A stretch of 64,000 nt of DNA. Origin: Armatimonadota bacterium. GTDB taxonomy: Bacteria; Armatimonadota; SYMT01. The stretch is taken from NCBI GenBank assembly GCA_041690135.1, contig JAWLHY010000001.1, positions 704,001 through 768,000 of the forward strand, in the 5' to 3' direction. Below the pieces are notes generated by a model, which saw only the letters and a program-made list of their open reading frames with translations, made no database searches and was not told the DNA's origin. The position numbers and the translations under genes were made by a program. Positions 5,042-59,245 of the stretch are shown piece after piece (within the stretch, counting starts at the first letter, position 1; every line of letters starts with the position of its first letter).

Positions 5042-5114
5042 GCCCTCGTAGCTCAGGGGATAGAGCGCCTCCGTCCTAAGGAGGGCGTCGGGAGTTCGAA
5101 TCTCTCCGAGGGCG
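5042..5114 (+). tRNA. tRNA-Arg(CCT), CCA not encoded
   Basis: Acceptor GCCCTCG/CGAGGGC, D arm GCTC/GAGC, anticodon stem CCTCC/GGAGG around CCT, TTCGAAT loop. Confidence 0.92.
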
Positions 5115-5471: not shown

Positions 5472-5543
5472 TGGGCGGTACAGGATTTGAACCTGTGACC
5501 TCTTCCGTGTCAAGGAAGCGCTCTCCCCCTGAGCCAACCGCCC
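5472..5543 (-). tRNA. tRNA-Val(GAC), CCA not encoded
   Basis: Reverse complement reads GGGCGGTTGGCTCAGGGGGAGAGCGCTTCCTTGACACGGAAGAGGTCACAGGTTCAAATCCTGTACCGCCCA. Confidence 0.95.
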
Positions 5544-10899: not shown

Positions 10900-11027
10900 A
10901 CCTTCACCTCGCTTTGACGGGAGTGACCTCGTGAAAACCCGTAGGAACAAATCATGAATGCACCGTAACGTAAGGTGGCCGGGAATCTGGATTCGCAAGA
11001 ACGCCCCAGCGATCCGGAGGCACGAAA

Positions 11028-11820: not shown

Positions 11821-11848
11821 GCTAACGAAAAGCGCCATTATCATTAGC
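11821..11848. other. dif-like 11-6-11 inverted-repeat site, putative tyrosine-recombinase core site
   Basis: GCTAACGAAAA GCGCCA TTATCATTAGC; arms 9/11 symmetric; intergenic and AT-rich. Confidence 0.55.
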
Positions 11849-12010
11849 AGGCGAACGTGCCTTTTACGGCCACTTCATCAACCTGCCACCACGGTTGGCT
11901 TTACCGCCAGGTGGATCGCGTGTCCGCAGCGGCAGCTGAACTTCGGCATGGCTCACCTCCGGGATCGGCTCCTGCTCATGTTGCTTTACGAAAGCTCACT
12001 ACGAGTCGGT

Positions 12011-12580
12011 ATGGAAACGCTCGAAGAACTTCGCACCGCACTCCGCTCTGCCCAGTGGTACAGCCGCCTCGACCAGCCCTTTGACCACCCCTGGGTCATC
12101 TGTGTCAGCAATCTCGAAAGGCCGGAGATCGACGAGCCCTGGTGGTGGATCACCTCGATCCTGCTGGAAGAGGAACAAGACCCTTTCCACGGGGAGTTCC
12201 TGAACGTGGGCTCTCAACGGGTGGAGTTAACGCGCGATATTGTGAAGATTGCCCTCGCGTCCTACCGAACTGCTCCGGAGCATCCTGCCCTTCGCGCCTT
12301 CGGTTGGGACCATTACGAGGCGGCCAAGCTGTGTTTGATGCACGCCTGCCGCTTCGCTGCACGCGAGATCGTGCTGGAACAGCAAGGCGGCTGGTCTCTT
12401 GTCGTTGACCTGTTCTGCCGAGGCCACTACCCCTTCGGCGTGGCGCAGAGCGGTAGGACCGTCGTCCTCGGGAAGTCTCGCAGTCCGGTAAGCACGGAAG
12501 CGTGGAAGTACACGGGGCCGGAAGCTCCGCCCATAAAGGCCACTGCCCGTCTCACGACCTACGAATCGTATTCCTCATAG
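12011..12580 (+). CDS. Hypothetical protein, possibly immunity-like
   Basis: ORF from METLEELR; ends with LFCRGHYPFG. Confidence 0.6.
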   Translation: METLEELRTALRSAQWYSRLDQPFDHPWVICVSNLERPEIDEPWWWITSILLEEEQDPFHGEFLNVGSQRVELTRDIVKIALASYRTAPEHPALRAFGWDHYEAAKLCLMHACRFAAREIVLEQQGGWSLVVDLFCRGHYPFGVAQSGRTVVLGKSRSPVSTEAWKYTGPEAPPIKATARLTTYESYSS

Positions 12581-12960
12581 GTACGGAAGAGCCAATCTTC
12601 CCAGCCTTCAGGCTGCGGTAGTTCCAGGCCGCCCTGGTGCGGCCCCACCACATAATGCCCCTCCGGGTTCGGATCATTCTCATACCACTCATGACCGTAT
12701 AGGGATCTCTGGAAATCCTCGGGGCGGCTTGGAAGACGGTCAACACACTCCCGTGAGCAGGCGTGCACCAACAGGGGTAGGACGTCCACAGGTAGTTCGT
12801 CTTTAGCCACGGGCCACGAGATCCAATACTGGAGCGGACCGCTTTCGGTGAATTGGCCCGCGCACACGCTGCATACCGCCGGTACGATCTCGGGGAAGAG
12901 CTGCGGTAGGCGCGGGAATGGCGGGCGGTACTTGCATTTCCGCCTTCCATAATACACCAT
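12559..12960 (-). CDS. Stand-alone Cys-containing domain resembling the C-terminal domain of some bacterial LRR proteins
   Basis: KYRPPFPRL...CSVC...WIS..VA.D...DVLPLLVHACSREC...PHQGG...QP. Confidence 0.65.
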   Translation of the reverse strand: MVYYGRRKCKYRPPFPRLPQLFPEIVPAVCSVCAGQFTESGPLQYWISWPVAKDELPVDVLPLLVHACSRECVDRLPSRPEDFQRSLYGHEWYENDPNPEGHYVVGPHQGGLELPQPEGWEDWLFRTYEEYDS

Positions 12961-13004
12961 TTCTCACCAGTAAACGGAGCGAGGCAATCTGATTGAGTGC
13001 AAGA

Positions 13005-13505
13005 ATGCCCAATGAACAGCCCACCGGCAGCGCCCCTCCCCGCTTCACGGTTCGCGCGGCGATGGACCGTTTCAACGCATTGCTCAACCTCAACGAGGAC
13101 GAGGGTATGCAGGATTGGGAGATTGAACTTGCCGATCCTGAACGCGTGGCGGAGTTCTGCACGCTCTACGAGACCCCGAAATTTGACCCCGACACCAGGT
13201 TCGCACTGATGCAGCTTATTGTCGCATCCCTGGACGATTGCCTGAGCATGCATCCCACCGCCGATGCACCCGATCTGGAACAACGCGTGGAGCGCCTGCT
13301 CCGTGCCGAGTTCCTGCTCCATCTGCATACGGTGAACGACTGGCAGTGCATTGAGAATGACCTGGACGATGCGTTTTGCGTGGCGCCCATGATGCGACGC
13401 ATCTGGCAAGAATGTTTCCGCGAAGAGTACGGTCAGTGGCTGGATGAGGTCGTGTACGGGTGCCGCCCCGAGAGCGATGCTCCGGTTGACCCCAGTGCGT
13501 CATGA
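13005..13505 (+). CDS. Hypothetical acidic protein, immunity-like
   Basis: MQDWEIELADPER..EF...Y and RFALMQLIVASLDD. Confidence 0.75.
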   Translation: MPNEQPTGSAPPRFTVRAAMDRFNALLNLNEDEGMQDWEIELADPERVAEFCTLYETPKFDPDTRFALMQLIVASLDDCLSMHPTADAPDLEQRVERLLRAEFLLHLHTVNDWQCIENDLDDAFCVAPMMRRIWQECFREEYGQWLDEVVYGCRPESDAPVDPSAS

Positions 13506-13518
13506 CCTGCAGTAGCCC

Positions 13519-13978
13519 TCAGGGTTGGTAATCTGCAAAAGATCCCGCAAGCGAATGCCGGAGGAACTCTTGTAAATCACGCGTAAAGCTCGCAAGACGT
13601 TCGGTGTCAAACTCAAGCTCACCCGACAGGCTTTGACGGACGCTGCCCCACCGAACATGCCGGTGCGCTCCCACCTCGTACCACAGCGCAAAGTGCCCGG
13701 CAGCGTCCCGCTGGTCGAGGAACAGGCCCAACTCCCCGGGGCCCAAGCTGACCAGCCGCGCCTGCCCTGTACGAGTGCGCTCGCAGGCCTCGACGGCTGT
13801 GAGAAAGTCGTCGAGGTCCCAGGTGTCCACCTGGGCCGAGAAGCTGCCGTCCTTGAACGCTCACGCTGAACTGGACGCTTGGAAAGCGCTTACGGACGAT
13901 CTCGCTCGCAATGAGCTGGATGCGTGAGCGCCCATCCGCACCCGGCAAGTTCAGCTCCAGTTGCACGCTTCTGTCCAA
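13519..13978 (-). pseudogene. Frameshifted WapI-like immunity protein
   Basis: Upstream frame ...SVQFSVSVQ joins downstream frame DGSFSAQVDTWDLDDFL...G.ARL.SL.P.EL.L....D..GH through one extra base near 13852. Confidence 0.55.
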
Positions 13979-14007
13979 TAGTCCGAGCGTCTACTCCCTG
14001 GCAGGCC

Positions 14008-14439
14008 CTAAGCCGGTTTCACCAGAATTGGCCGCGCATTCTCGTCGAGGATGTCGCCTTCCCAGAAGAGCAGCGACTGCGTGTTGAAACAGATGGTCCC
14101 GATAAGGGTCTCGAGTCTCTGAAAGCGGCTTTCCTCGTCGAAGTCTGGGTGAACCATGATGCCCAACACCAGGCGCATGCTCCGCATCCGCTGGATCATT
14201 TCCGGTTGGAGTTCAACGCCGCGGGCTTTGGCGAGGTTGTGTGCATAGGCGATCAAACCGTCCAGGTGACCGGGGTGCTTGCTCTCCAGCATCACGTTAA
14301 TGGTAATCGTGAGGTCCGGCCACTCATATTCGTATGCTCGGAGGGTTCCGTCCACTCGCGCCATGGTGAACCTGGCACCATCCGCCAGCGCAGCCATCTG
14401 TCTTTCCGGCAGTTCCGAGATGGGGCAATAGATCGTCAT
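14008..14439 (-). CDS. Hypothetical protein
   Basis: Start MTIYCP after the RBS GAAAGGGGA supplied by repeat copy A. Confidence 0.7.
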   Translation of the reverse strand: MTIYCPISELPERQMAALADGARFTMARVDGTLRAYEYEWPDLTITINVMLESKHPGHLDGLIAYAHNLAKARGVELQPEMIQRMRSMRLVLGIMVHPDFDEESRFQRLETLIGTICFNTQSLLFWEGDILDENARPILVKPA

Positions 14440-14442
14440 CAG

Positions 14443-14760
14443 TCCCCTTTCACCGTCACCGAACTGTTTCCTATCGGACGAGAGGCTTCCTCTAAAGGCG
14501 TGCGCTTGGATTTTCGTTACCAAGCTTTGGGAGCGTGCCACGTGGGAAATGCTGAAGGGGGCGATGAGGCGCAGGCCGGACAAAGGCCAAGGGCAACCCC
14601 TTGCTCAAGGACGTTAGTCCCCTACTGGGGAATTGGCGGGGAGCACCTGGCGCGTCGGGTTATGGACTCACGCTCGCAAGCCCGCCGATGCAATCGGCGA
14701 CTCCACACTAAACGGCAGAGCGGATGCTGGGTGAGCAGGGTGAATATGGTGCGAAGCCGG
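14443..14760 (-). repeat. Intergenic module, copy A (REP hairpin, dif-like half site, RBS)
   Basis: Co-linear similarity to 15954-16287. Confidence 0.85.
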
Positions 14761-14997
14761 TCATTTTCTTTGGAAGCCTACGGCGTACATGAGCGGCAGG
14801 GCCCCGCGAGGCTTCCTGGCGCGGCGGTCGCCGTAGCATCCCGCCGGGATGTAGGCGGCGACTCCGGGCAACTCTTCGAGGAGTAGCTGCATTGCCTGAA
14901 AGAAGTGGAAGGGTGATTGGTAATGGTTGCCGGCCCGCTGCACAGGCAGAACGAGCAGATTTCCTTGAGTTGTGGCGTCAAGACTCGGACCATCCAC
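14761..14997 (-). CDS. Small hypothetical ORF or gene remnant
   Basis: Its stop abuts repeat copy A; no recognisable motif. Confidence 0.25.
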   Translation of the reverse strand: MDGPSLDATTQGNLLVLPVQRAGNHYQSPFHFFQAMQLLLEELPGVAAYIPAGCYGDRRARKPRGALPLMYAVGFQRK

Positions 14998-15088
14998 CCT
15001 TCTCCGTAAAGGTGCTCTTAAAGTGGGTGCTTAACTGCTCCTCGGGACTCGTTGGAGACGATTCGGGTAAGTTCGCTATGAGGCTTTC

Positions 15089-15439
15089 GTGAACACAACC
15101 ATTCGGGAGTTCTGGGCGGGTCTACCCCGCTGGTGGAGACTGTCCCCACTCATCATTCTATCGGCGCTTCTGTTCTGGCTGCTGTGCGGCGCGTTCGGAC
15201 TCTGGTCGCGGACCTGGGTTCTCGGAGAGTTCGGCCCGCACGGGGAAGCCCTGGCCATGCAGGTGCAAACGCAGGCGTCGGAAATGGCCGGCGAAGTCGA
15301 CCCCGGTGCGGAGGTGTACTTCGAAGCGATGTTGCCACTGAGCGGTAAAGTCCCTCCAACAGCGGTTCAGTACCGGATTACCACCAATTCGAAAAAGCTG
15401 CACGAGGCCTGGGTTTCGCGGTCGCCTGACGGTCGATAG
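15089..15439 (+). CDS. Hypothetical single-TM protein
   Basis: 116 aa with an N-terminal TM helix. Confidence 0.55.
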   Translation: MNTTIREFWAGLPRWWRLSPLIILSALLFWLLCGAFGLWSRTWVLGEFGPHGEALAMQVQTQASEMAGEVDPGAEVYFEAMLPLSGKVPPTAVQYRITTNSKKLHEAWVSRSPDGR

Positions 15440-15451
15440 GGACTCGGGGCC

Positions 15452-15946
15452 TTACTCGTCACTCTTGGGAATCGGCTTGCCGGAAAGCATGAACCCCACC
15501 CGGTCGTTGGGGTACACCTGAACTTTCACGGTAGCCGTATCGGACAGGCCATGGTACACCAGCAAACGATAGGCCTGAATCTCGCTCGGATGACCTCCCT
15601 TCTCGGGTGTCTCCGCTATTAGTCCTTGGGCACGATCTTCGTCCGGCGGTCCGAATGCCGACAGCATGTCTTCCAGGCATTTCAGCCCTTTGAACAGCCG
15701 CAGAAGGCGTTGTCGCTCTCCCTCGGAGATCCTCATGAATCGCGAATGCCGCAGGGATTCCGGAGTTTTACCGCCACACCAGGGGCAGTGCCGGATGACC
15801 AAGCTCCCCTTCCCGTGCGCGGCCGGATAGACGAAGCGGAATTCGTGGGTCTCGGCGTCGAACTCGATCGGGTGATCCGGCGACTCCGCCATCGTACGCA
15901 ACCAGGTACAGTCGCAGAATGCGTCGGTCTTTGAGCACGGGTGCAT
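15452..15946 (-). CDS. DUF6980-like Cys protein
   Basis: CDC...P...I.FD...EF...GSLVIRHCPWCGGKTPESLR; RBS from repeat copy B. Confidence 0.75.
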   Translation of the reverse strand: MHPCSKTDAFCDCTWLRTMAESPDHPIEFDAETHEFRFVYPAAHGKGSLVIRHCPWCGGKTPESLRHSRFMRISEGERQRLLRLFKGLKCLEDMLSAFGPPDEDRAQGLIAETPEKGGHPSEIQAYRLLVYHGLSDTATVKVQVYPNDRVGFMLSGKPIPKSDE

Positions 15947-15953
15947 CGGTCGT

Positions 15954-16287
15954 TCCCCTTTCACCGTCACCGAACCGTTCCCTATCAGACGAGTGGCTTC
16001 CTTTGAAAGCGTGTGGCTGGATTATCATTACCAAACTTTGGGGGGCATCCCAGGTGGGAAATGCAGCAGACCGTTTGCTCAAGGACGTCAGTCCCCTACT
16101 AGGAGGCTGACGGGGGGCGCCTGGCGAGTCAGGACCCGTACGCACGCTCGCAAGCCCGCCGATGCAATCGGCGACTCCACATTGAACGGCAGCGCGGGTG
16201 CTAGGTAACTGTACTGATGCGGTGCGACTCCGCACTGAACGGCAGCGCGGGCGCTCTATAACCACGCTGGATGCGGTGCGATGCCGG
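15954..16287 (-). repeat. Intergenic module, copy B, with an internal ~54-bp tandem duplication
   Basis: Matches 14443-14760; GCGACTCC.CA.TGAACGGCAGCGCGGG occurs twice. Confidence 0.85.
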
Positions 16288-16295
16288 GAGGCGGT

Positions 16296-17246
16296 TCACT
16301 TGTGGCGGTCCAGGCGCCAGCGGGTGGTGAAGGCATGGCGTTTGCCGGGGGCGAGGTCCTGCAGCGGGCTGAGCAGCTCGAGCTCCATGTAGGGAAGCGG
16401 GTCGGGATTGGACCAGATCTCCTGGGCGCATCCCCCGTCGGGATATTCCCTCCCCCGCTCGTAGCGCGCGGAGACGGTCATCCGCAGCCCACCAGCGCGG
16501 GCCGCCGCCCAGCCTTCCGGCGAGTCGCCGCCGATCTTGCCTCCCCTACCCGGGTGGCGGCGCAGGCATGCCCGGTCCCGGGTGACCCGGAGCGTCTCCG
16601 GGACCGGTGGGCTGTTCTTGAATATCAGAAAGCCTTCCGGAAACCGACCGTTCCGGTGCAGCGGCAGGCAAGCCTCGTCCGGCGCATCCACCTGGGCCAC
16701 TTCCCACACCGACCACCGCGCCGCCTGGCTGCCGGTGTTCACCAGCGTGTTCCGGAGTGTCACTTCGGAGCCGGTCCGGGCCAGCGAGATCTCCCGGATG
16801 AAACGGAGGCCGGTCCGAGGGCTGCGGGTACCAGTCACCCGGAGGCGCCGACCCTCCAGGACTTCCACCGCGTGCGGGCCGCGATCCAGGTATGGGTCCG
16901 GCGGCCACCCCCAGCGGTCCTGCGGCGCGGGCCAGAGCTTATCGCCGCCGTAATTCACCCACTCCTTCTGCTCCCCCTCCGGGGCGATGGTTTTGCCGGC
17001 GAGCGCCGGGTTTTCCCACAGGAAGTTCTTCTCCCCGGAGTACCCGTACCGCATGATCCGCCCGATCTGCGGGACGAACACCAGGTCGACGGTTCCGTTC
17101 GATAGCTGGTAAGCGCCGGGCCAACCCTGGTATTCCAGGCGCCGGACCTCCACCCGCTGCTTCTCCCCGGAGGCGCCCACCGCGAATGGACTCACGGCCA
17201 CGCACCCCAGCAAAGCCAGCACACGTACGCTTCTCCAGCAAACCAT
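16296..17246 (-). CDS. DUF4380-like exported protein
   Basis: Signal peptide; VPQIGRIM, NYGGDKLWPAPQ, YMELELLSP. Confidence 0.8.
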   Translation of the reverse strand: MVCWRSVRVLALLGCVAVSPFAVGASGEKQRVEVRRLEYQGWPGAYQLSNGTVDLVFVPQIGRIMRYGYSGEKNFLWENPALAGKTIAPEGEQKEWVNYGGDKLWPAPQDRWGWPPDPYLDRGPHAVEVLEGRRLRVTGTRSPRTGLRFIREISLARTGSEVTLRNTLVNTGSQAARWSVWEVAQVDAPDEACLPLHRNGRFPEGFLIFKNSPPVPETLRVTRDRACLRRHPGRGGKIGGDSPEGWAAARAGGLRMTVSARYERGREYPDGGCAQEIWSNPDPLPYMELELLSPLQDLAPGKRHAFTTRWRLDRHK

Positions 17247-17334
17247 ATTCCCGCCTCTCCCCTCTCAATCATCACGGAGCCCAGTTCTCTGAAGAGTCGG
17301 TTCCTGCCTCCCGGGGGCACCTCACGCACGTTCG

Positions 17335-17364
17335 ACGGCAGCGCGGCGGAGATTATCATTACCA
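17335..17364. promoter_or_regulatory. Putative recombinase-binding half site upstream of the recombinase
   Basis: ACGGCAGCGCGG and GATTATCATTACCA, both also present in repeat copy B. Confidence 0.45.
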
Positions 17365-17442
17365 TTCCCTCTCCGGGCGGACCGACTATCTGGATGGTGG
17401 GTGCCGGAGCGGTGTCCCCTGTTCAGTTCGGCGGGAGGGAGC

Positions 17443-18393
17443 ATGTCGGATCTGGTGCGGAGAGAGCGGGCGCAGGTCGGCGGTGGGGAGCTGCTGAGGC
17501 TCTTGCTGGCGGATAAGCGGAGCGAGGCCACGAAACGGGCTTATGCGGCGGACCTGCGGGACTTCTTCGGCGAGGAGCTGAACCCGCGGGAGGTGGAACG
17601 GTTCGTCTCGCAGCCGCCTGCGGAGATCGCGCGGGTGCTGACCACCTATAAGGGCGAGCTTCTCGCCCGCGGGCTAACCGAGGCGACGGTCAACCGGCGG
17701 CTCGCGGCGATCCGGTCGCTGCTCAAGTTCTGCTACCGCCTGGGATGGTCGCAGACCGACGGGCGGTCCCTGGTTGAGGGTGAGCGGGTGGTGGCGTACC
17801 GCGACACGCGCGGCGTAACACCGGAGATCGTGAAAAAGCTGTTCACCGCGGCGAACACGGGAGACCTGACCGGCCTGCGCGACGTGGCGCTCCTCCGCCT
17901 GCTGTGCGAGAACGCGCTTCGCCGGGCCGAGGTGTGCGCCCTGAACGTGGAGGACTTCCGTCCGGAAGAGCGTCGCCTCAACATCCTGGGCAAGGGCAAG
18001 GGGACCCAGAAGGAGCCGGAAACACTCTCCGAGCGGGCCATCGAGGCGCTGAACCGCTACCTGGCGGTGGCCGGCCACGGCGGGAACCCGGAGGCGCCGC
18101 TGCTGCGGAACGTCGATCCTCGGCCGGAGTACAACGGTCTGCGGCTCACGGGCGACGGGATCTACCACATCGTCCGCGACCTGGGCGCGCGCGTCGGCGT
18201 CCCCAGTCTCACACCGCACAAGCTACGCCACACGGCCATCACCATCGCGCTGGACCTGACGGATGGGAATGTCCGCGCGGTGCGGGACCTCTCGCGCCAC
18301 GCCCGCCTGGAGACCCTCCAGCGGTATGACGACAACCGAAGGAACTTCCAGGGAAGCGTTTCGGAGAAGCTCTCCAACCTGTTCGACGAATAG
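17443..18393 (+). CDS. Tyrosine recombinase (Xer-like, resembling the cyanobacterial YDDNR subfamily)
   Basis: SAM-like N-terminus; catalytic R (ALRRAE), K (GKG), HKLR, H (SRH) and Y (RYDDNR); GGGAGG RBS. Confidence 0.93.
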   Translation: MSDLVRRERAQVGGGELLRLLLADKRSEATKRAYAADLRDFFGEELNPREVERFVSQPPAEIARVLTTYKGELLARGLTEATVNRRLAAIRSLLKFCYRLGWSQTDGRSLVEGERVVAYRDTRGVTPEIVKKLFTAANTGDLTGLRDVALLRLLCENALRRAEVCALNVEDFRPEERRLNILGKGKGTQKEPETLSERAIEALNRYLAVAGHGGNPEAPLLRNVDPRPEYNGLRLTGDGIYHIVRDLGARVGVPSLTPHKLRHTAITIALDLTDGNVRAVRDLSRHARLETLQRYDDNRRNFQGSVSEKLSNLFDE

Positions 18394-33577: not shown

Positions 33578-35437
33578 TCAGAGCCCGGCGCGGTAGTTGC
33601 CCACCGCCTCGGAGGTGCGGAGGTAGCGGTTGTAGAGGCGAAGCAGCTCGACCTGTCCTTTGAGGTTGGGTCCGAGGCGGAGGGTGGGTGAGCCGTTCAC
33701 GTCCTGGAGCGTGGGGCTGAAGCGTCCCCAGCCGAACTGGCGGTGCTCGCCGCCGTCGTTTAGCACCCCATCGATCACGAAGGAAATGATCTTGGGGCCG
33801 CCGTCGACGATGGCGACCACGTGATGCCGCTTGCCGGCTTGAAGCTGGCCGGGGTCGCTGGTCCAGGTCGCTTCCTGGCGCCCGTCGCAGAGAGTCAGCT
33901 TCAAGGCGCCGTGGGGGGCCGTGGTCAGGGCGATGCCCCGTCCGGTCGCATCCCGGCTGTCCAGGACCGTTTGCCCGGCCGCCACGTCGTCCAGCCGCAG
34001 CCAGAGATCGAGGGTAAAGCCGGCGCGGGTGTCCTTGCTGCCGTGATCCGGGCGGCTGTTGTCCCGCTGGATGAATGCGGGGAGGCGCGGTAACTTCGCT
34101 TCCTTCTGGCCGCGGACCTCGAGGACCTTTCCAGCGGCGGCCACGGAGCGGTTCTGGAACTGGTGAAAGAGCCCGTTGAGCAGGGAGCCGTCGATCTCAT
34201 GCAGGCGGCCCACGTGCTTCTGCGTCTCGGTGATGTAATACTTCCCGTCCTCTTCCACCAGGTCGGGATAGCTCATCCGAACGATCGGGTCGTCGTCGTA
34301 GAGCAGGATCTCCGGCTGCGACCAGTGGATCACTTTGCCGGCCGGCGAGTCCCGCTCTTCCCCGGCGCTGACCCAAACGGGGTTGCGATCGCGGTAAGGG
34401 TCCCAGTCCGGGGCCCGGAGCGCCACCGCGCCGCCGTGATTGTGGAACCAGTAGAGATACTTGCCGTTGCCGCAGCGCCACACGAAGTTGGCGGCGCGAG
34501 GATGCTTGAACACCCGTCCGCCGGGGGTGTACTGCTTGTACTGCGGCTTCGTCCAGGTTCGTCCCCCATCGCGGCTGTAGGCGGACACGGGGTAGCCGTC
34601 AATGCTCCGGTAGACGCAGTACAGCGAGCCGTCGCTGATTTCCGTAAGGCTCTGCTCCTCGGCGACCCGTCCGCCCCCCTCGGGGGTTCGCAGGCCCACG
34701 TCCCCTTCGGGCAGCGTCTCCCAGGTGATCTTTTCCGGGTCCCGCTCGGTCAAGAGGTTCGGGCTGCGCAGGAAGGCCCCCTCGGACTGGGCGAAGAACC
34801 CCTTCCCCATCGCGGCCACCTTGTGGTGTGGAATGATCGCCGCGCCCCGGTGGACGAGCGGACGCCCCACGTTCCAGAAGAACCGGAGATTACCTCCGTA
34901 GACGTTCTTCCGATCCCACTCGAAGGCGCGGATCGGGATCTCATACCGTTTCGCCGACCAGGAGCGGCCCCCATCATCCGAGTACTTGAAGACGTAATGG
35001 CCCAGGGAGTCGACGCGGGTGTAGACGCCGCCGTCTTCCCGCTTCACCTCGCGGACGTTGTCGGTGTTGTGGTTGTAGAAGCAGTAGATCCGCCCACCCG
35101 GCACCTTCAGCAGCACCGCGTAGGAGGCCTCGGGACCGGTCCCCGGCTCCACGTCCACCACGTCCGTCCAGGTGCGCCCGCGGTCCCGGCTCCGCATGGC
35201 GATCACGTGCTGGCTGGAGGCGCCTTCCTGCCCTTTGGCCGTCGTCATCACGCAGAGCCAGGCGCCGTCATCGGTCTTCACGATGTACGGCTGGTCGCAG
35301 TAGCTCTCGCCGGGAATCTCGAAGCCGTTGGAGATGTGGCGGGGATCGGCAACTTTCACTTTAGGAAGCTCGGCGGCGGATACCGCGGCCACGGTGAGGG
35401 TGGCGACCAGGGCGGGGATGACGGTACTTGGGTGCAT
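33578..35437 (-). CDS. BNR/sialidase-fold protein with C-terminal LamG domain
   Basis: Asp boxes SRDRGRTW, SDDGGRSW, SRDGGRTW; HHVVAIVDG...IDG. Confidence 0.88.
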   Translation of the reverse strand: MHPSTVIPALVATLTVAAVSAAELPKVKVADPRHISNGFEIPGESYCDQPYIVKTDDGAWLCVMTTAKGQEGASSQHVIAMRSRDRGRTWTDVVDVEPGTGPEASYAVLLKVPGGRIYCFYNHNTDNVREVKREDGGVYTRVDSLGHYVFKYSDDGGRSWSAKRYEIPIRAFEWDRKNVYGGNLRFFWNVGRPLVHRGAAIIPHHKVAAMGKGFFAQSEGAFLRSPNLLTERDPEKITWETLPEGDVGLRTPEGGGRVAEEQSLTEISDGSLYCVYRSIDGYPVSAYSRDGGRTWTKPQYKQYTPGGRVFKHPRAANFVWRCGNGKYLYWFHNHGGAVALRAPDWDPYRDRNPVWVSAGEERDSPAGKVIHWSQPEILLYDDDPIVRMSYPDLVEEDGKYYITETQKHVGRLHEIDGSLLNGLFHQFQNRSVAAAGKVLEVRGQKEAKLPRLPAFIQRDNSRPDHGSKDTRAGFTLDLWLRLDDVAAGQTVLDSRDATGRGIALTTAPHGALKLTLCDGRQEATWTSDPGQLQAGKRHHVVAIVDGGPKIISFVIDGVLNDGGEHRQFGWGRFSPTLQDVNGSPTLRLGPNLKGQVELLRLYNRYLRTSEAVGNYRAGL

Positions 35438-47497: not shown

Positions 47498-48124
47498 TCA
47501 GAACCCGATCCGGATCCCGAGGAGGATGCCCATGAGAGCGCTCATCGGCGGACCGATGATCATGCTCAAGATGGGCCGTCCGAAGAAAACGAGCCCCAAC
47601 AGCATGATCCCGCCCCACCGCTCCATGAACTTGCTGAACTCGTAGGCGGGCGCATCGGGAAGAAAGGCCACCAGGATCTTGGCGCCGTCGAGCGGTCCGA
47701 TCGGGATGAGGTTGAACAACATCAGCCCCAGGTTGACGATCACGCAGATCAGCAGGAGACTGGCGAGGGCCCCATCTACCAGGCCGAACCGGATCGGCAG
47801 CGCGAACCCGATCGCCAGGAGGAAGTTGGAGAACGGCCCCCAGGCAGCGATCTTGCACATGTCCCACTTGGGGTTCCGCAGCAGGCTGGGGTTAACCAGC
47901 ACCGGGCGTCCCCAACCGAGACCGAAGCCGGTGATCGAGCTCATCACGCAGAAGAGCGCGCCCAGCGGGTCGAAGTGGTCCTGCGGCATGATCGAGAGAC
48001 GACCATCCCGGCGCGGCCCGTCGTCGCCGTTGTTCACCGCCGACAGGGCATGCGCGAATTCGTGTACCGGGATCGCGATGATGAGCGCGAACAGGTACAT
48101 CATGATCTGCTGGGGATCGTTCAA
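47498..48124 (-). CDS. Site-2 protease (M50)
   Basis: HEFAH, GPFSN, FNLIPIGPLDG. Confidence 0.93.
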   Translation of the reverse strand: MNDPQQIMMYLFALIIAIPVHEFAHALSAVNNGDDGPRRDGRLSIMPQDHFDPLGALFCVMSSITGFGLGWGRPVLVNPSLLRNPKWDMCKIAAWGPFSNFLLAIGFALPIRFGLVDGALASLLLICVIVNLGLMLFNLIPIGPLDGAKILVAFLPDAPAYEFSKFMERWGGIMLLGLVFFGRPILSMIIGPPMSALMGILLGIRIGF

Positions 48125-50736
48125 TCGTCTCTCCTCTGTTCCCGGTCCAGTTCCTCGCGGAGGTACTCCAGCTCGGCGGCTCGGTCGTGCAGCTCGCCGT
48201 TCAGGCGCGCATCCAGAGCGCGCTCCAGGGCGCGGCCGAAGGCAGGGCCGGGACGATATCCCAGCTCCTTCAGGTCGCTCCCCGTTACCTCCAGTTTAAC
48301 ATTCCGCCATTGTACCAGGAATCGTTCCAGCAGTGTACGCATGCGGTCGCCCTCGCCGCTCGCCGCGCTCACGGCGGCGAGCAGCACCAGGGCTTCCGCG
48401 GGCAGCGGGCGCAGTGCGCGGGTGAGATCGGAGGGCGGCACCCCTTCCCCCAGCAGCCCCGCGGCCGTGTCCGCCGCGCCGACCGCCGCCTCCAGCGCTT
48501 TGAGGTCTGGACCCGTAACGCGCAGGCGGGCGACCGCCAGCTCTGCGGCCGGCACCGGGCCCAGGGGGCGCAGGATCCCCGCCAGATAGGTGAGGCTGGC
48601 GTTAACCGGATCGTCGGTCGTGCGCTCCCACCAGTCCACGGCGCCCGGGACGGCTTGCAGAAGCGGCAGGTCGAGCTCCAGCCCCGGGAAGAGGGTGCGA
48701 AAGACCCCCAGATCCTGCAGCCGCAGGAGGGCCCCCACCGGGCGGGGACGCATCAACACCTCTTCCAGTTGCCGGCGCATCCGCTCCGGGCTGATGGTTT
48801 CCAGCGCTCCCGAGGCGATGGCGTGCCGCGCCAGTTCCTCGGTCTGGGAGTCCATCCGGAAGTGGAACCGCTCCTCGAAGCGCACGGCCCGGAAGATCCG
48901 CGTGGGGTCGTCGATGAAGCTGACGTTGTGGAGGACGCGGAGCCGGCGCCGCTGGAGATCCTGTCTGCCCCGGAACGGGTCCAGCAGCTCGCCGAAACGC
49001 TGCGGGAGCAAGGAGATCGCCATCGCGTTGATGGTGAAGTCGCGGCGCCGCAGATCGTCGTTGATCGACGACGGCTCCACTTCGGGCAGTACGCCGGGAC
49101 GGGCGTAGCTCTCGGTGCGCGCGGTGGCGAAATCGACCTCAATCCCGTCCGGGAGACGGACCTTCGCCGTGCCGAAGGCGGACTCGATCTTGAACAAATC
49201 GCCTCCGAGCTGCTCCGCCACCGCGGCCGCCAGGCGGGCGCCGTCCGGCTCGACCAGGAGGTCGAGATCCAGATTCCGCACCCCCAGTAGGAGGTCGCGG
49301 ACGAAGCCGCCCACCACGTAGACCTGGGCGCCCTCCGACAGCGCGATCCGGCCCACTTCCTCCAGGACCTTCTGCACGCGGGCCGGTAGATGCTCCCGGA
49401 TGAGTTGGGCGACCGGCTCCTCCGTCAGGGGTGGCGCGCCTGCGAGATAACGGGCGCCGTGGAGCGCTTCGAGGACGTTGGTCCGGGTGACGATCCCCAC
49501 CACCTCGTCCCCCTCCATCACCGGCAGCCTCCCGATCCCCTCGCGGATCATGATCCGCTCCAGCGTGGAGAGGGGCGTGTCCGGGCTTGCCGTCGCCACG
49601 TCGCGCGTCATGAAGCCACGGATCGGCGCGTGGTCCAGGCCGTGGCTGCGCGCCTTGTCGACGTCGCGGCGCGTCACCACCCCCACCACCTTCCCACGAT
49701 CCATCACCAGCAGCCCCGAGTGGCCGTACCGCAGCATCCGGCGGTAGGCCTCGCCGATGCTGGCGTCCGGAGGGACGGTGCGGACCGGAGAGGCCATGAT
49801 TGCCGCGGCCGTGCGCTCCGGCACCACGAACTGCTCCAGCAGCTTCAGCAGCCGCTCCTTAACGGCCGGAAGCGCTTCGTCCCGCAGGGTCACCGAGGCG
49901 GCCCGGGCGTGCCCTCCCCCACCCAGTTCCCGGAGAACGGCGGCTACGTCGAGCGCATCCGTGCGGCTGCGGCCGATCAGGTACACGGCGTCTTCCATCT
50001 CTGTCAGGATGAACCCCACCCCCACGTCCTCCGCGTCGAGCACGCGCGGCACCAGGAGCGCGGCGTCGTCCACGTAGGGACCGGGCGGAGCCGTGCTGAT
50101 CAGAACGGGCGTGCCGCGCACCTCGTGGATTTCGAGGCCGGCAAGGAGGTGCTGCAGCAGGCGGCGCTGCTCCGGACTGAGGCTGCGGCGGATGAACTGG
50201 GAAACGACATCGAGGTCCGCCCCGCCCCGCAGCAGCCACGCGGCTGCTTCCAGGTCCTCCGGACGCGTGCCGGCGAAAGAGAGGGAGCCGGTGTCTTCGT
50301 AGATCCCCAGTAGGATGGCCGTGGCCTCGAAGGCGGTGAGGCTCTCCTGGCGCTCGCGCAGGCAATGGGCCATCACGCTGGAAACGGCCCCCCACGGCTC
50401 CAGGCGCTGGTAACCGGCCGGCACGTCGCACTCCGCCGCCACGTGGTGATCGTAAAGATGGACTTCCACATCCGGGAGGTCCAGCCAGGCGGCGGCGAGA
50501 CCGAGACGGCGACGGCTGCAGGTATCCACCACAATCACGCGGCGGATCGCCTCGGCCTCGATATCAGCGGGAACCCGTGGCGCGAGGACCTCGCGATGGA
50601 TCGAGAGGAAGTCATGCACCCCGGGAGATTCCCCACCGGGGAGCACGAGCACGGCGCCCGGATAGAGCCGCCCCGCACCGACCAGCCCGCCCAGGGCATC
50701 GAAATCGGCGTTCACGTGCGTGACGACTACATCCAT
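48121..50736 (-). CDS. DHH-DHHA1-CBS tRNA nucleotidyltransferase (A-adding/CCA type)
   Basis: H.NADFD, YDHH, GGGHARAAS, CBS pair, VGGFVRD..DLD, RRDFTINA, DDPTR. Confidence 0.93.
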   Translation of the reverse strand: MDVVVTHVNADFDALGGLVGAGRLYPGAVLVLPGGESPGVHDFLSIHREVLAPRVPADIEAEAIRRVIVVDTCSRRRLGLAAAWLDLPDVEVHLYDHHVAAECDVPAGYQRLEPWGAVSSVMAHCLRERQESLTAFEATAILLGIYEDTGSLSFAGTRPEDLEAAAWLLRGGADLDVVSQFIRRSLSPEQRRLLQHLLAGLEIHEVRGTPVLISTAPPGPYVDDAALLVPRVLDAEDVGVGFILTEMEDAVYLIGRSRTDALDVAAVLRELGGGGHARAASVTLRDEALPAVKERLLKLLEQFVVPERTAAAIMASPVRTVPPDASIGEAYRRMLRYGHSGLLVMDRGKVVGVVTRRDVDKARSHGLDHAPIRGFMTRDVATASPDTPLSTLERIMIREGIGRLPVMEGDEVVGIVTRTNVLEALHGARYLAGAPPLTEEPVAQLIREHLPARVQKVLEEVGRIALSEGAQVYVVGGFVRDLLLGVRNLDLDLLVEPDGARLAAAVAEQLGGDLFKIESAFGTAKVRLPDGIEVDFATARTESYARPGVLPEVEPSSINDDLRRRDFTINAMAISLLPQRFGELLDPFRGRQDLQRRRLRVLHNVSFIDDPTRIFRAVRFEERFHFRMDSQTEELARHAIASGALETISPERMRRQLEEVLMRPRPVGALLRLQDLGVFRTLFPGLELDLPLLQAVPGAVDWWERTTDDPVNASLTYLAGILRPLGPVPAAELAVARLRVTGPDLKALEAAVGAADTAAGLLGEGVPPSDLTRALRPLPAEALVLLAAVSAASGEGDRMRTLLERFLVQWRNVKLEVTGSDLKELGYRPGPAFGRALERALDARLNGELHDRAAELEYLREELDREQRRDD

Positions 50737-58774: not shown

Positions 58775-59245
58775 ACCGGGGTTGGGGTTGGCAAGGCGGG
58801 AGCCGGGGGCAAGGTCGCAAAGCGCCGATGCAATCGGCGACTCCACACTAATGGTCACGGCGGTGACTGGGTTGGCCGGGCGGGATACGGGCCAGGACCC
58901 TGTGGTGTGGGGCCGGTCGGAGTTGGGTCTGCAGAGGCGGGATCCGGGGGCAAGGCCGCGAAGCGCCGGACGGGTGTCCGGACTCCCATCGGGGCCTGGT
59001 AATGGTGGGTACCCGACACAGGATGCGCGGTCTGGTGTCGCGAGGGACGGAACCAGAGGGAGTTCGGTTTGGCAGGGCGGGGGCCGGGGGCTGGATCGCC
59101 AGGCGCCGATGCAATCGGCGATTCCACATAAAGGGCCAGAACGGTCGCTGGGTTGGCACGGCAGGGTCCAGGGGCGAGATCGCCAGGCGCCGTTGCAATC
59201 GGTGAGTCCAAACTCACGGCCATGGCGGTGGTTGGGTTGCGGGAG
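58775..59245. repeat. REP-like array of degenerate ~85-bp units
   Basis: GCGCCGATGCAATCGGCGA(C/T)TCCACA at ~58823 and ~59103, degenerate at ~59187. Confidence 0.8.

Follow-up and report, generated by a model that had tools for sequence, protein, structure and literature searches.

XerCD/dif chromosome dimer resolution is among the most conserved housekeeping systems of bacteria, and each of its known single-enzyme replacements (XerS, XerH and XerL) has been informative on the control of the reaction. A stretch of 64,000 nucleotides from an Armatimonadota bacterium (G000:C1:704001-768000, here called the window) carries a 28-bp palindrome that resembles dif and, downstream of it, a single gene for a tyrosine recombinase. 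The question raised by this locus is whether the palindrome and the recombinase belong together and, if so, whether they serve the chromosome, a mobile element or the capture of genes. From the evidence set out below, the two likely constitute a gene-linked, single-recombinase dif/Xer system that spread horizontally and displaced XerCD/dif.

The window is part of contig C1 (1.62 Mb) of genome G000, the assembly of which amounts to 9.1 Mb in 25 contigs with 65% G+C. Orthologues of the recombinase were sought in 40 relatives; the order of G000 comprises eight genomes (G000-G007), and a survey with the XerD model covered 41 genomes of the phylum.

The dif-like site and its recombinase

The two arms of the palindrome, GCTAACGAAAA and TTATCATTAGC, are complementary at 9 of 11 positions around the 6-bp spacer GCGCCA and differ at positions 3 and 6; the element starts 13 bp past the stop of a 259-codon frame. 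A pattern search of the eight genomes of the order, allowing up to three mismatches, found exactly one copy in each of G000, G004 and G006, and none in G001, G002, G003, G005 and G007. The site reads GCTAACGTAAA-GCGCCA-TTATCATTACC in G006 and GCTAATGAAAA-GCGCCA-TTATCATTACC in G004, the spacer being unchanged in all three genomes. When the three loci were aligned, the only conserved DNA besides the recombinase gene was 26-31 bp at the 28-mer. In its length, inverted arms, spacer and single copy, the element matches what is expected of a single-recombinase dif/Xer site (28-31 bp, inverted arms, a spacer of 6-8 bp and one copy per chromosome).

The recombinase, a protein of 316 amino acids, contains the Pfam domain Phage_integrase (3.7e-19) and a SAM-like N domain, and the closest solved chains are XerA 4a8e (3e-12) and XerD 1a0p. 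Its Arg, Lys, His-x-x-Arg, His and Tyr positions align with those of XerA 4a8e. Domains and alignment together identify a single tyrosine recombinase of Xer type whose catalytic set is complete, and an Xer-type fold is predicted for it. The protein nevertheless scored below the NCBIfam cut-offs for XerC (103 vs 335 bits, TIGR02224) and XerD (86 vs 330 bits, TIGR02225), and likewise for XerS (49 vs 267 bits, NF003462) and archaeal XerA (78 vs 220 bits, NF040815), and so falls outside all four families. In a tree of 35 sequences, from which the truncated copy of G004 and L020 were excluded, the enzyme lay within a clade of 10 cyanobacterial and four same-phylum proteins (98% by the Shimodaira-Hasegawa-like approximate likelihood-ratio test, SH-aLRT), separate from both canonical XerC/D orthogroups and from the other, multi-copy recombinase family of G000. 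This genome holds seven tyrosine-recombinase matches, none of them canonical, and encodes an FtsK with a gamma domain.

A metagenome scan with the exact 18-mer AAAGCGCCATTATCATTA gave 48 matches, all in DNA of 19-60% G+C. None of these had the left arm and none had the module recombinase within 2 kb; they were rejected as further instances of the site, being chance matches.

Site and gene as a pair in relatives

Among the 40 relatives, close orthologues of the recombinase were found only in G006 (87% identity) and G004 (86%, the gene being cut by the contig end). Within the order, enzyme and 28-mer thus co-occur, as single copies, in three of three genomes with the enzyme, and the 28-mer occurs in none of the five without it. 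The site is upstream of the gene and co-oriented with it in all three genomes, at distances of 5.6 kb (G000), 1.0 kb (G004) and 1.8 kb (G006). The genes and DNA in between differ in every case, and the two intervening proteins of G004 and G006 had no Pfam match at E up to 1. On its left-hand side, the site adjoins an orphan gene in G000, an aldo-keto reductase gene in G004 and genes for Uma2-type endonucleases in G006.

More distant orthologues allowed the pairing to be followed beyond the phylum. Ten cyanobacterial loci, with proteins 38-46% identical to the enzyme, were obtained from a named genome collection; L027 lacked upstream DNA, which left nine to be tested. Seven of the nine have an inverted repeat with the inner sequence GAWAA-N6-TTWTC, from 3 to about 45 nt before the recombinase start codon. 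In three Nostocales loci (L023, L024 and L025) a perfect ATTATCGAAAA-N6-TTTTCGATAAT is located a few bases before the start codon, and L030 has the same repeat with one letter changed. L026 carries GGTTGCGAAAA-GCCCAA-TTATCGTAACC 38 nt upstream of the gene, while weaker palindromes are found 12 nt (L029) and about 45 nt (L022) upstream. No palindrome of this form was present near the gene in the cyanobacterial loci L021 and L028.

Similarly, a palindrome extends over the recombinase stop codon in two of four same-phylum loci and is single-copy in the respective genomes: GCTATTGATAA-TGGGTA-TTCTCAATAGC in G012 and AGTCTGTATAA-TACTCA-TTATCAAGCCT in G027. The related recombinase gene of both genera is situated, together with an HTH_17 gene, inside an otherwise conserved operon (L036 8345-14676; L035 8265-14582) that includes a binding-protein/permease fusion and a permease of an ATP-binding cassette (ABC) transporter, and FtsY. 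No such palindrome was found beside the relative of the enzyme in G031 and G018.

The site is thus linked to its gene across phyla, and the linkage is, on this distribution, old. The proposal of a preliminary description of the window, that this recombinase recognizes this site, gains support from the co-occurrence in the order and from the related sites beside distant orthologues, and the 28-mer and the recombinase are best regarded as a putative cognate pair. Conservation in relatives had been named there as a test, and the 28-mer is indeed present near orthologous recombinases, with variable gene content between the two. The opposite outcome, in which the motif would be scattered before unrelated promoters, did not occur.

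Two further features of these loci were noted. In G004 (L034, 1650-1735), GCTCACCGGTCGCGCTGC is repeated three times in tandem immediately after the 28-mer. In G006 (L033, 8200-8900), the DNA between the site and the intact recombinase gene holds a truncated 5' copy of the gene, with stops, followed by three copies of TAAGCGNTTTGGTA and a 14-base C run, all of which are signs of local rearrangement.

Distribution relative to XerCD and canonical dif

The XerD model gave canonical matches of 297-386 bits in 34 of the 41 genomes, most of them with two; no canonical match was obtained in G000, G004, G006, G010, G013, G028 and G038. Within the order, G001 (330/325 bits), G002 (326), G003 (335), G005 (353/314) and G007 (317/310) have canonical Xer genes and lack the module, and the best scores in the module-bearing genomes were 158 (G000), 170 (G004) and 148.5 bits (G006). 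The canonical dif of the order, ACTTCCGATAA-TCNNNN-TTATGT (TTATGC in G005), was recognized by way of a generic inner-dif pattern, which gave one-mismatch matches only, two of them with a longer word in common. It occurs once in each of the five XerCD-bearing genomes, with no or one mismatch. Matches in G000 and G006 had three mismatches, which is the level of the reversed-pattern control, and G004 had no match. XerC/XerD genes, canonical dif and module therefore split the eight genomes identically, five against three, with XerC, XerD and canonical dif all absent from the same genome in G000, G004 (90% complete) and G006 (94% complete). Further, five cyanobacterial genomes tested had no canonical XerD (best score 157 bits).

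Two other genera, g13 (G013, G028) and g10 (G010, G038), are also without canonical XerC/D, the best scores being 148-208 bits. The recombinase of G013 and G028 is sister to the clade of the enzyme studied here; no A+T-rich palindrome was found within 1.5 kb of the non-canonical recombinases of these two genomes.

In the mechanism that we infer, the 28-bp palindrome would be the core recombination site of the recombinase encoded downstream, the two making up a self-contained module. Each site would be occupied by two recombinase molecules, on its two similar arms; once a chromosome dimer has formed, the sister sites would be synapsed and exchanged across the 6-bp spacer to give monomers, probably under FtsK control at division. 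The module would have taken the place of XerC, XerD and canonical dif in G000 and in two related genera. The DNA beside the site would act as a hotspot that gathers foreign, low-G+C orphan genes, and the single arms found there, one of which overlaps the promoter region of the recombinase itself, would be secondary.

Probable horizontal spread

The recombinase is 86-87% identical among the module-bearing genomes, and DnaA is 66-71% identical between G000 and G004, G005 or G006. Similarly, distances within the family amount to 0.5-1.0 substitutions per site for canonical Xer orthologues, as against 0.15 for the module enzyme. In a DnaA tree, G006 paired with the XerCD-bearing G001 (95% SH-aLRT), and the module-bearing genomes did not constitute one clade. 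This would result from movement of the module between lineages, or else from coexistence of both systems followed by reciprocal loss; coexistence of a relative of the enzyme with XerCD is seen in G027 and G012. Overall, the module appears to have spread horizontally among these lineages.

Spread of this kind also suits a reading in which the module would do no more than resolve or attach an integrated plasmid or mobile element, or be a remnant of such a system, with no role in dimer resolution, the absence of XerCD/dif being unrelated or an assembly gap. Relatives of the enzyme are plasmid-borne in Anabaena azotica (L025) and Calothrix (plasmid3, L028), and those of G027 and G012 live beside XerCD. 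The module occurs in three different genomic contexts, is much more conserved than DnaA and is surrounded by low-G+C cargo. However, each genome has one site, with no second copy that would delimit an element, and the Pfam matches of the interval proteins include no transfer, replication or partition genes. The reciprocal pattern of three against five, which runs through Xer genes, canonical dif and module, also argues against this reading. It is unlikely that xerC, xerD and dif were all lost to gaps in three assemblies that are 90-97% complete. A mobile-element function without dimer resolution is thus unlikely.

Position relative to the terminus and points against a replacement of XerCD

If the module resolves chromosome dimers, its position relative to the terminus is of interest, and the preliminary description had suggested GC skew as a check of whether the site, at 11.8 kb of the window, marks the terminus. 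The cumulative G-C skew of C1 has its global maximum, or plateau, at 715-765 kb and falls thereafter; the site, at 715.8 kb, is within 25 kb of this apex. The other contigs have a steady skew of 0.015-0.02 G-C per base. Gene-strand bias, computed with a crude gene caller based on G+C by codon position, also peaks at 720-800 kb on C1, but weakly, and reaches only -0.08 to +0.11 on contigs with clear skew. The placement is nevertheless ambiguous, since the two other indicators, 8-mer skew and synteny, point about 0.7 Mb away.

Several observations weigh against the proposed replacement or against a terminal position. The skew curve of C1 has several local peaks, and at 720-740 kb the combined 8-mer skew peaks only locally, its global maximum being at 1.45 Mb. 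In G000, the orthologues of the genes that flank canonical dif in G001 and G007 are located at C1:1,409.7-1,415.2 kb, so that synteny with relatives indicates 1.41-1.45 Mb, about 0.7 Mb from the G000 module. Polar 8-mers resembling FtsK-orienting polar sequences (KOPS) were rejected as a terminus marker: their skew was at most 63-80% on 10 training contigs, and the best words, GTTGGTGG and TTGGTGG, failed on the held-out contigs C2, C3 and C10. The module flanks of G000, G004 and G006 are not syntenic, which fits a mobile element equally well as a plastic terminus. G002, G003, G004 and G006 are fragmented assemblies, 69-94% complete, in which absences are weaker evidence. The eight genomes of the order are kin, and the DnaA tree represents one gene only and places G001 on a long branch. 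Finally, G027, G012, G031 and G018 retain XerC/D alongside a relative of the enzyme (38-51% identity), and in the closed genome of G027 the gene is 0.89 Mb from dnaA in a 3.44-Mb circle and thus not opposite dnaA. Because of this coexistence and this position, the family is not a dimer resolver everywhere.

The aldo-keto reductase gene beside the site in G004 connects these positions. Its G000 orthologue (C1:1,454,444-1,455,430; 76.6% identity, next best 40%) is 40 kb from the G000 orthologues of the dif-flanking genes of G001 and G007. Thus, the G004 module is in the neighbourhood that holds the canonical dif of relatives, and the G000 module is 0.74 Mb from the equivalent neighbourhood, on the same contig. 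From the orientations, a single inversion with one end at the site would interconvert the G004 and G000 orders. Overall, a terminal position of the site is consistent with the data but unproven.

A search of G000:C1:1,405-1,420 kb for a remnant of canonical dif gave a best match of only 11/17. At G000:C1:1454328-1454338, ACTTCCGTTAA matches the XerC-type arm of the canonical dif of the order at 10 of 11 positions, in a 180-bp gap beside the orthologue of the site-flanking gene of G004. There are 61 such 10/11 arm matches genome-wide, which corresponds to about 1e-3 for this gap; the match was noticed post hoc. This arm could be a fossil of the old dif, a lead only, and it could not be fitted to a clean split-site inversion.

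Half sites, repeats and the low-G+C island

The surroundings of the site in G000 contain single arms, here called half sites, two of them within copies of a repeat, and a low-G+C island (Table 1). The preliminary description had these strings, like the site itself, at their correct positions.

Table 1. Features at the dif-like site and the recombinase gene (positions in the window)
Feature	Position	Strand	Remarks
dif-like core site, 28 bp, 11-6-11	11821..11848	no strand	GCTAACGAAAA / GCGCCA / TTATCATTAGC, read from the window
Xer-like tyrosine recombinase gene, 316 aa	17443..18393	+	most likely start ATG 17443, behind GGGAGGGAG
Half site A, TTTTCGTTACC	14511..14521	no strand	reverse complement of left arm with one change; inside repeat A
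Half site B, TTATCATTACC	16022..16032	no strand	right arm with one change; inside repeat B
Half site C, TTATCATTACC	17353..17363	no strand	80-90 bp before recombinase start, in divergent gap towards DUF4380 gene
Repeat A	14443..14732	-	non-coding leader (GAAAGGGGA before ATG), half site, dispersed hairpin element; upstream of gene 14008-14439
Repeat B	15954..16262	-	partial tandem copy of distal end 16224-16262; upstream of DUF6980 gene 15452-15946
Low-G+C island, 58-62% vs 65% in genome	9700..16250	both orientations	about nine small genes, most of them orphans, left and right of the site
DUF4380 / mutarotase-like secreted protein gene	16296..17246	-	G+C similar to that of the host; flanked by repeat B and half site C

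All three half sites are in the right-arm orientation and each is identical to an arm at 10 of 11 positions. Relative to the functional arms, they are unchanged at 9 of 11 positions, and their variation is confined to those at which the arms themselves vary, half sites A and B differing at exactly these two (3 and 6). No partner arm is recognizable 6 bp from any of them. They are a feature of G000 only; neither between site and gene nor upstream of the gene do G004 and G006 have a half site. The pattern G[GC]TAA[CT]GA[AT]AA, suggested earlier for a genome scan, has 10 matches on both strands of the genome, compared with about six expected from base composition. Enrichment at the locus was borne out, with five of the 10 within 5.5 kb and the remaining five in unrelated contexts, but the five are not independent events: two are the arms of one palindrome, and A and B are inside a local repeat of about 290 bp. 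The weaker arm-like strings listed previously at 10964 and 9865 proved to be 7/11 and 6/11 matches, not above chance.

The two repeats (14443-14732 and 15954-16206) are 82-85% identical and reach the start codons of two minus-strand genes, the proteins of which are unrelated (E 0.23). The gene-proximal half of the repeat has just these two copies in the genome, and the distal half holds a hairpin, GCCGATGCAATCGGC, with 28 copies genome-wide. Two words had been described as shared between repeat B and the DNA upstream of the recombinase gene, and both are located there, 79-108 bp before the start codon. In the whole 9.1-Mb genome, the 14-mer GATTATCATTACCA has just two copies, one at window 16020 and one at 17351. 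The 12-mer ACGGCAGCGCGG also occurs elsewhere (nine genomic copies, three of them in the window), as part of the repeat unit with the 28-copy hairpin core. An Rfam scan of 9-20 kb of the window, at E up to 1, gave no match, and the repeats were accordingly rejected as a known RNA family.

Ten proteins of the island were compared with Pfam (E up to 1), and the only matches were DUF6980 and, below cut-off, a fragment of a WapI-like immunity protein (13519-13830). The DNA of the island had no match in six family relatives. The DUF4380 gene, on the other hand, has DNA matches of 67-70% in G005 and G002. Genes for tRNA-Arg(CCT) (5042-5114) and tRNA-Val(GAC) (5472-5543) are found on the left of the site, 6.3 kb away, and are not the starting point of the island.

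This arrangement had been read as a non-integron gene-capture platform, in which the recombinase would insert single-gene cassettes at the site and the half sites would be cassette boundaries, like attC in an integron. The clustering of five of the 10 pattern matches, the common orientation of the half sites and their variation at the two arm-variable positions only, the 290-bp non-coding unit before two unrelated genes and the variable content between site and gene in three genomes would all suit such a platform. Moreover, after LME-1 integration in Legionella, dif is described as intact at one end of the element and modified at the other (PMC9765430). However, the lack of a partner arm is at odds with it, there are three half sites for about nine genes that point both ways, A and B count as one event, and the half sites are found in one genome. 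The island lies on both sides of the full site, and the metagenome collection yielded no further instance of the site. The recombinase scored 15 bits against an integron-integrase cut-off of 265, gene orientation is mixed, and no attC-like structured sites were found in the Rfam and structured-repeat scan; on these membership tests an integron-like platform was rejected. The arrangement also differs from pdif modules, which are bounded by complete XerC/D-type sites that alternate in orientation, in having one complete site only, with half sites all in one orientation. Capture of cassettes is thus very unlikely. The other option of the preliminary description, a chromosomal dif that acts as an insertion hotspot, fits with XerC/D and canonical dif missing where the module is present, and with site-to-gene DNA that differs in three genomes.

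A further explanation, which concerns the half sites alone and is compatible with a dimer-resolving role of the module, takes them for A+T-rich elements of the promoters or operators of minus-strand genes, where GATAAT or GAAAAT would be the -10 box. Their likeness to the arms would then reflect rare A+T-rich words in a 65% G+C genome, or a recombinase that doubles as repressor. A minus-strand start codon (14439, 15946 and 17246) follows each half site at a distance of 70-105 nt, A2 and T6 of the -10 hexamer are kept in both variants, and half site C overlaps a weak promoter-like match on the plus strand before the recombinase gene (TCGACG-16-TATCAT, 17332-17359). On the other hand, a -35-like hexamer was not seen before any of the minus-strand genes, and the promoter scan gave one match compared with 1.2 in shuffled sequences. 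The nine positions shared with functional arms are far more than a hexamer would require, and no other gene in the genome is preceded by the 11-mer pattern. For the autoregulation proposed in the preliminary description, the observations are the weak promoter-like match over half site C and the absence of half sites upstream of the gene in the two orthologous loci. Promoter or operator elements are the less probable origin, with a minor chance of being correct. Both origins are possible, and scars left at the site by insertions or duplications are the most likely one.

Comparison with known systems

The class to which the module would belong, single-recombinase dif/Xer systems, is known. In streptococci and lactococci, the single recombinase XerS acts instead of XerC/XerD on difSL, a dif-like site linked to its gene (PMC1914069, PMC2965235). 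As in that system as described there, one Xer-like enzyme would stand for XerC and XerD, the site is gene-linked and there is one site per chromosome. Unlike XerS, the module enzyme belongs to another recombinase family (49 vs 267 bits), and its site is near-palindromic (11-6-11) and located 1-5.6 kb from the gene, with variable genes between, rather than immediately beside it. XerH of Helicobacter and Campylobacter is also a single recombinase with its own site, difH (PMC2731167, PMC3325230, PMC5241119). The likeness to XerH, drawn from published descriptions, is that XerCD is replaced within part of a larger group that otherwise keeps it; the host of the module, in contrast, is of another phylum, and the nearest relatives of its enzyme are cyanobacterial.

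A third case, XerL/dif of Legionellales, was found where XerCD/dif is missing, and XerL is reported to be experimentally necessary and sufficient; at the Legionella dif, integrated LME-1 is bounded by an intact site on one side and a modified site on the other, and one XerL orthologue is plasmid-borne (PMC9765430). The absence of XerCD/dif and the plasmid-borne relatives of the module enzyme are parallels to the XerL system as reported, and the half sites, if scars, would fit the LME-1 pattern by analogy. Unlike in the XerL account, the proposed scars are half sites and not near-complete sites. Oscillatoriophycideae are reported to be without Xer and to carry simple tyrosine recombinases of a subgroup 'Cyan' instead (PMC8138268). 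The nearest named relatives of the module enzyme, at 38-46% identity, are likewise cyanobacterial, a likeness by relatives; the module host is not one of those cyanobacteria, and the passage on 'Cyan' mentions no cognate site. Thus, the module resembles XerS, XerH and XerL but belongs to another recombinase clade.

Accessory genes gather beside a tyrosine-recombinase site here, as they do in integrons, in the pdif modules of Acinetobacter plasmids (PMC6449649) and in integrative mobile elements exploiting Xer (IMEX) such as CTXphi and TLCphi (PMC9226527). Blocks beside the module site are foreign-looking and integrase-less, and the directly oriented partial sites recall the hybrid sites of IMEX integration as described. 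These second sites, however, are single arms, found in one of the three genomes, and no complete second site flanks any block.

What is new is the recombinase clade used, the site and the swap between sister genomes, and also the recurrent gene-adjacent palindromes beside cyanobacterial members, the genomes of which are without canonical XerD. No description of the site of this clade was found in the literature searched. If the proposed role is correct, the module would be a further, independent replacement of XerCD. The swap would have been caught at shallow depth, since the old and the new system are distributed among sister genomes within one family, and even within one genus, and it can thus be studied. 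The clade of the enzyme is shared with cyanobacteria, and in this clade a candidate site is directly beside the gene. A published dif prediction succeeded for none of the five cyanobacteria in its table and, according to the discussion, failed for every species of that phylum (PMC3025954). Further, the zone of orphan-gene turnover at the site bears on whether integrating elements exploit single-recombinase dif sites, and both site and enzyme are small and simple enough to be assayed directly on plasmids.

A wider view would be that a portable 'dif plus Xer' cassette of a mainly cyanobacterial clade entered a non-cyanobacterial family at least twice, each time making XerC, XerD and the old dif dispensable. 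The site would now be a landing pad for orphan genes that leave single-arm scars, and the gene-adjacent 11-6-11 palindromes of cyanobacteria would be their long-missing dif and plasmid-resolution sites. This is conceivable but speculative, and on balance doubtful.

Other recombinases and repeats

Several features elsewhere in these genomes concern arms, palindromes or recombinases of related kinds. At G000:C23:27054-27070, GCTAATGAAAAGCCCAG combines the left-arm word with a similar spacer and has no right arm; the contig is 40 kb long, has 62% G+C and carries a phage-type integrase. The hairpin GCCGATGCAATCGGC is the core of an element that resembles repetitive extragenic palindromic (REP) sequences, is often locally clustered and occurs on either strand, ACGGCAGCGCGG coming after the core in repeats A and B. 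Copies in the window are at 14674-14740, 16148-16262, 58789-58880 and 59104-59161, and others are at G000:C10:359056-359376 and G000:C15:164770-164972 and 183874-184228. In G000:C6, a near-identical truncated duplicate (34335-34955) of an Xer-like recombinase gene is located 13 kb from the full copy at 47511-48707, which suggests a mobile or duplicated element. Finally, G005:C10:1614-1641 (L117) is a perfect 11-6-11 palindrome, ACGTCCGATAA-ATAATC-TTATCGGACGT, 5.8 kb from a tyrosine recombinase of the multi-copy family that is 52% identical to the protein at G000:C1:560772; this palindrome may be the own site of that family.

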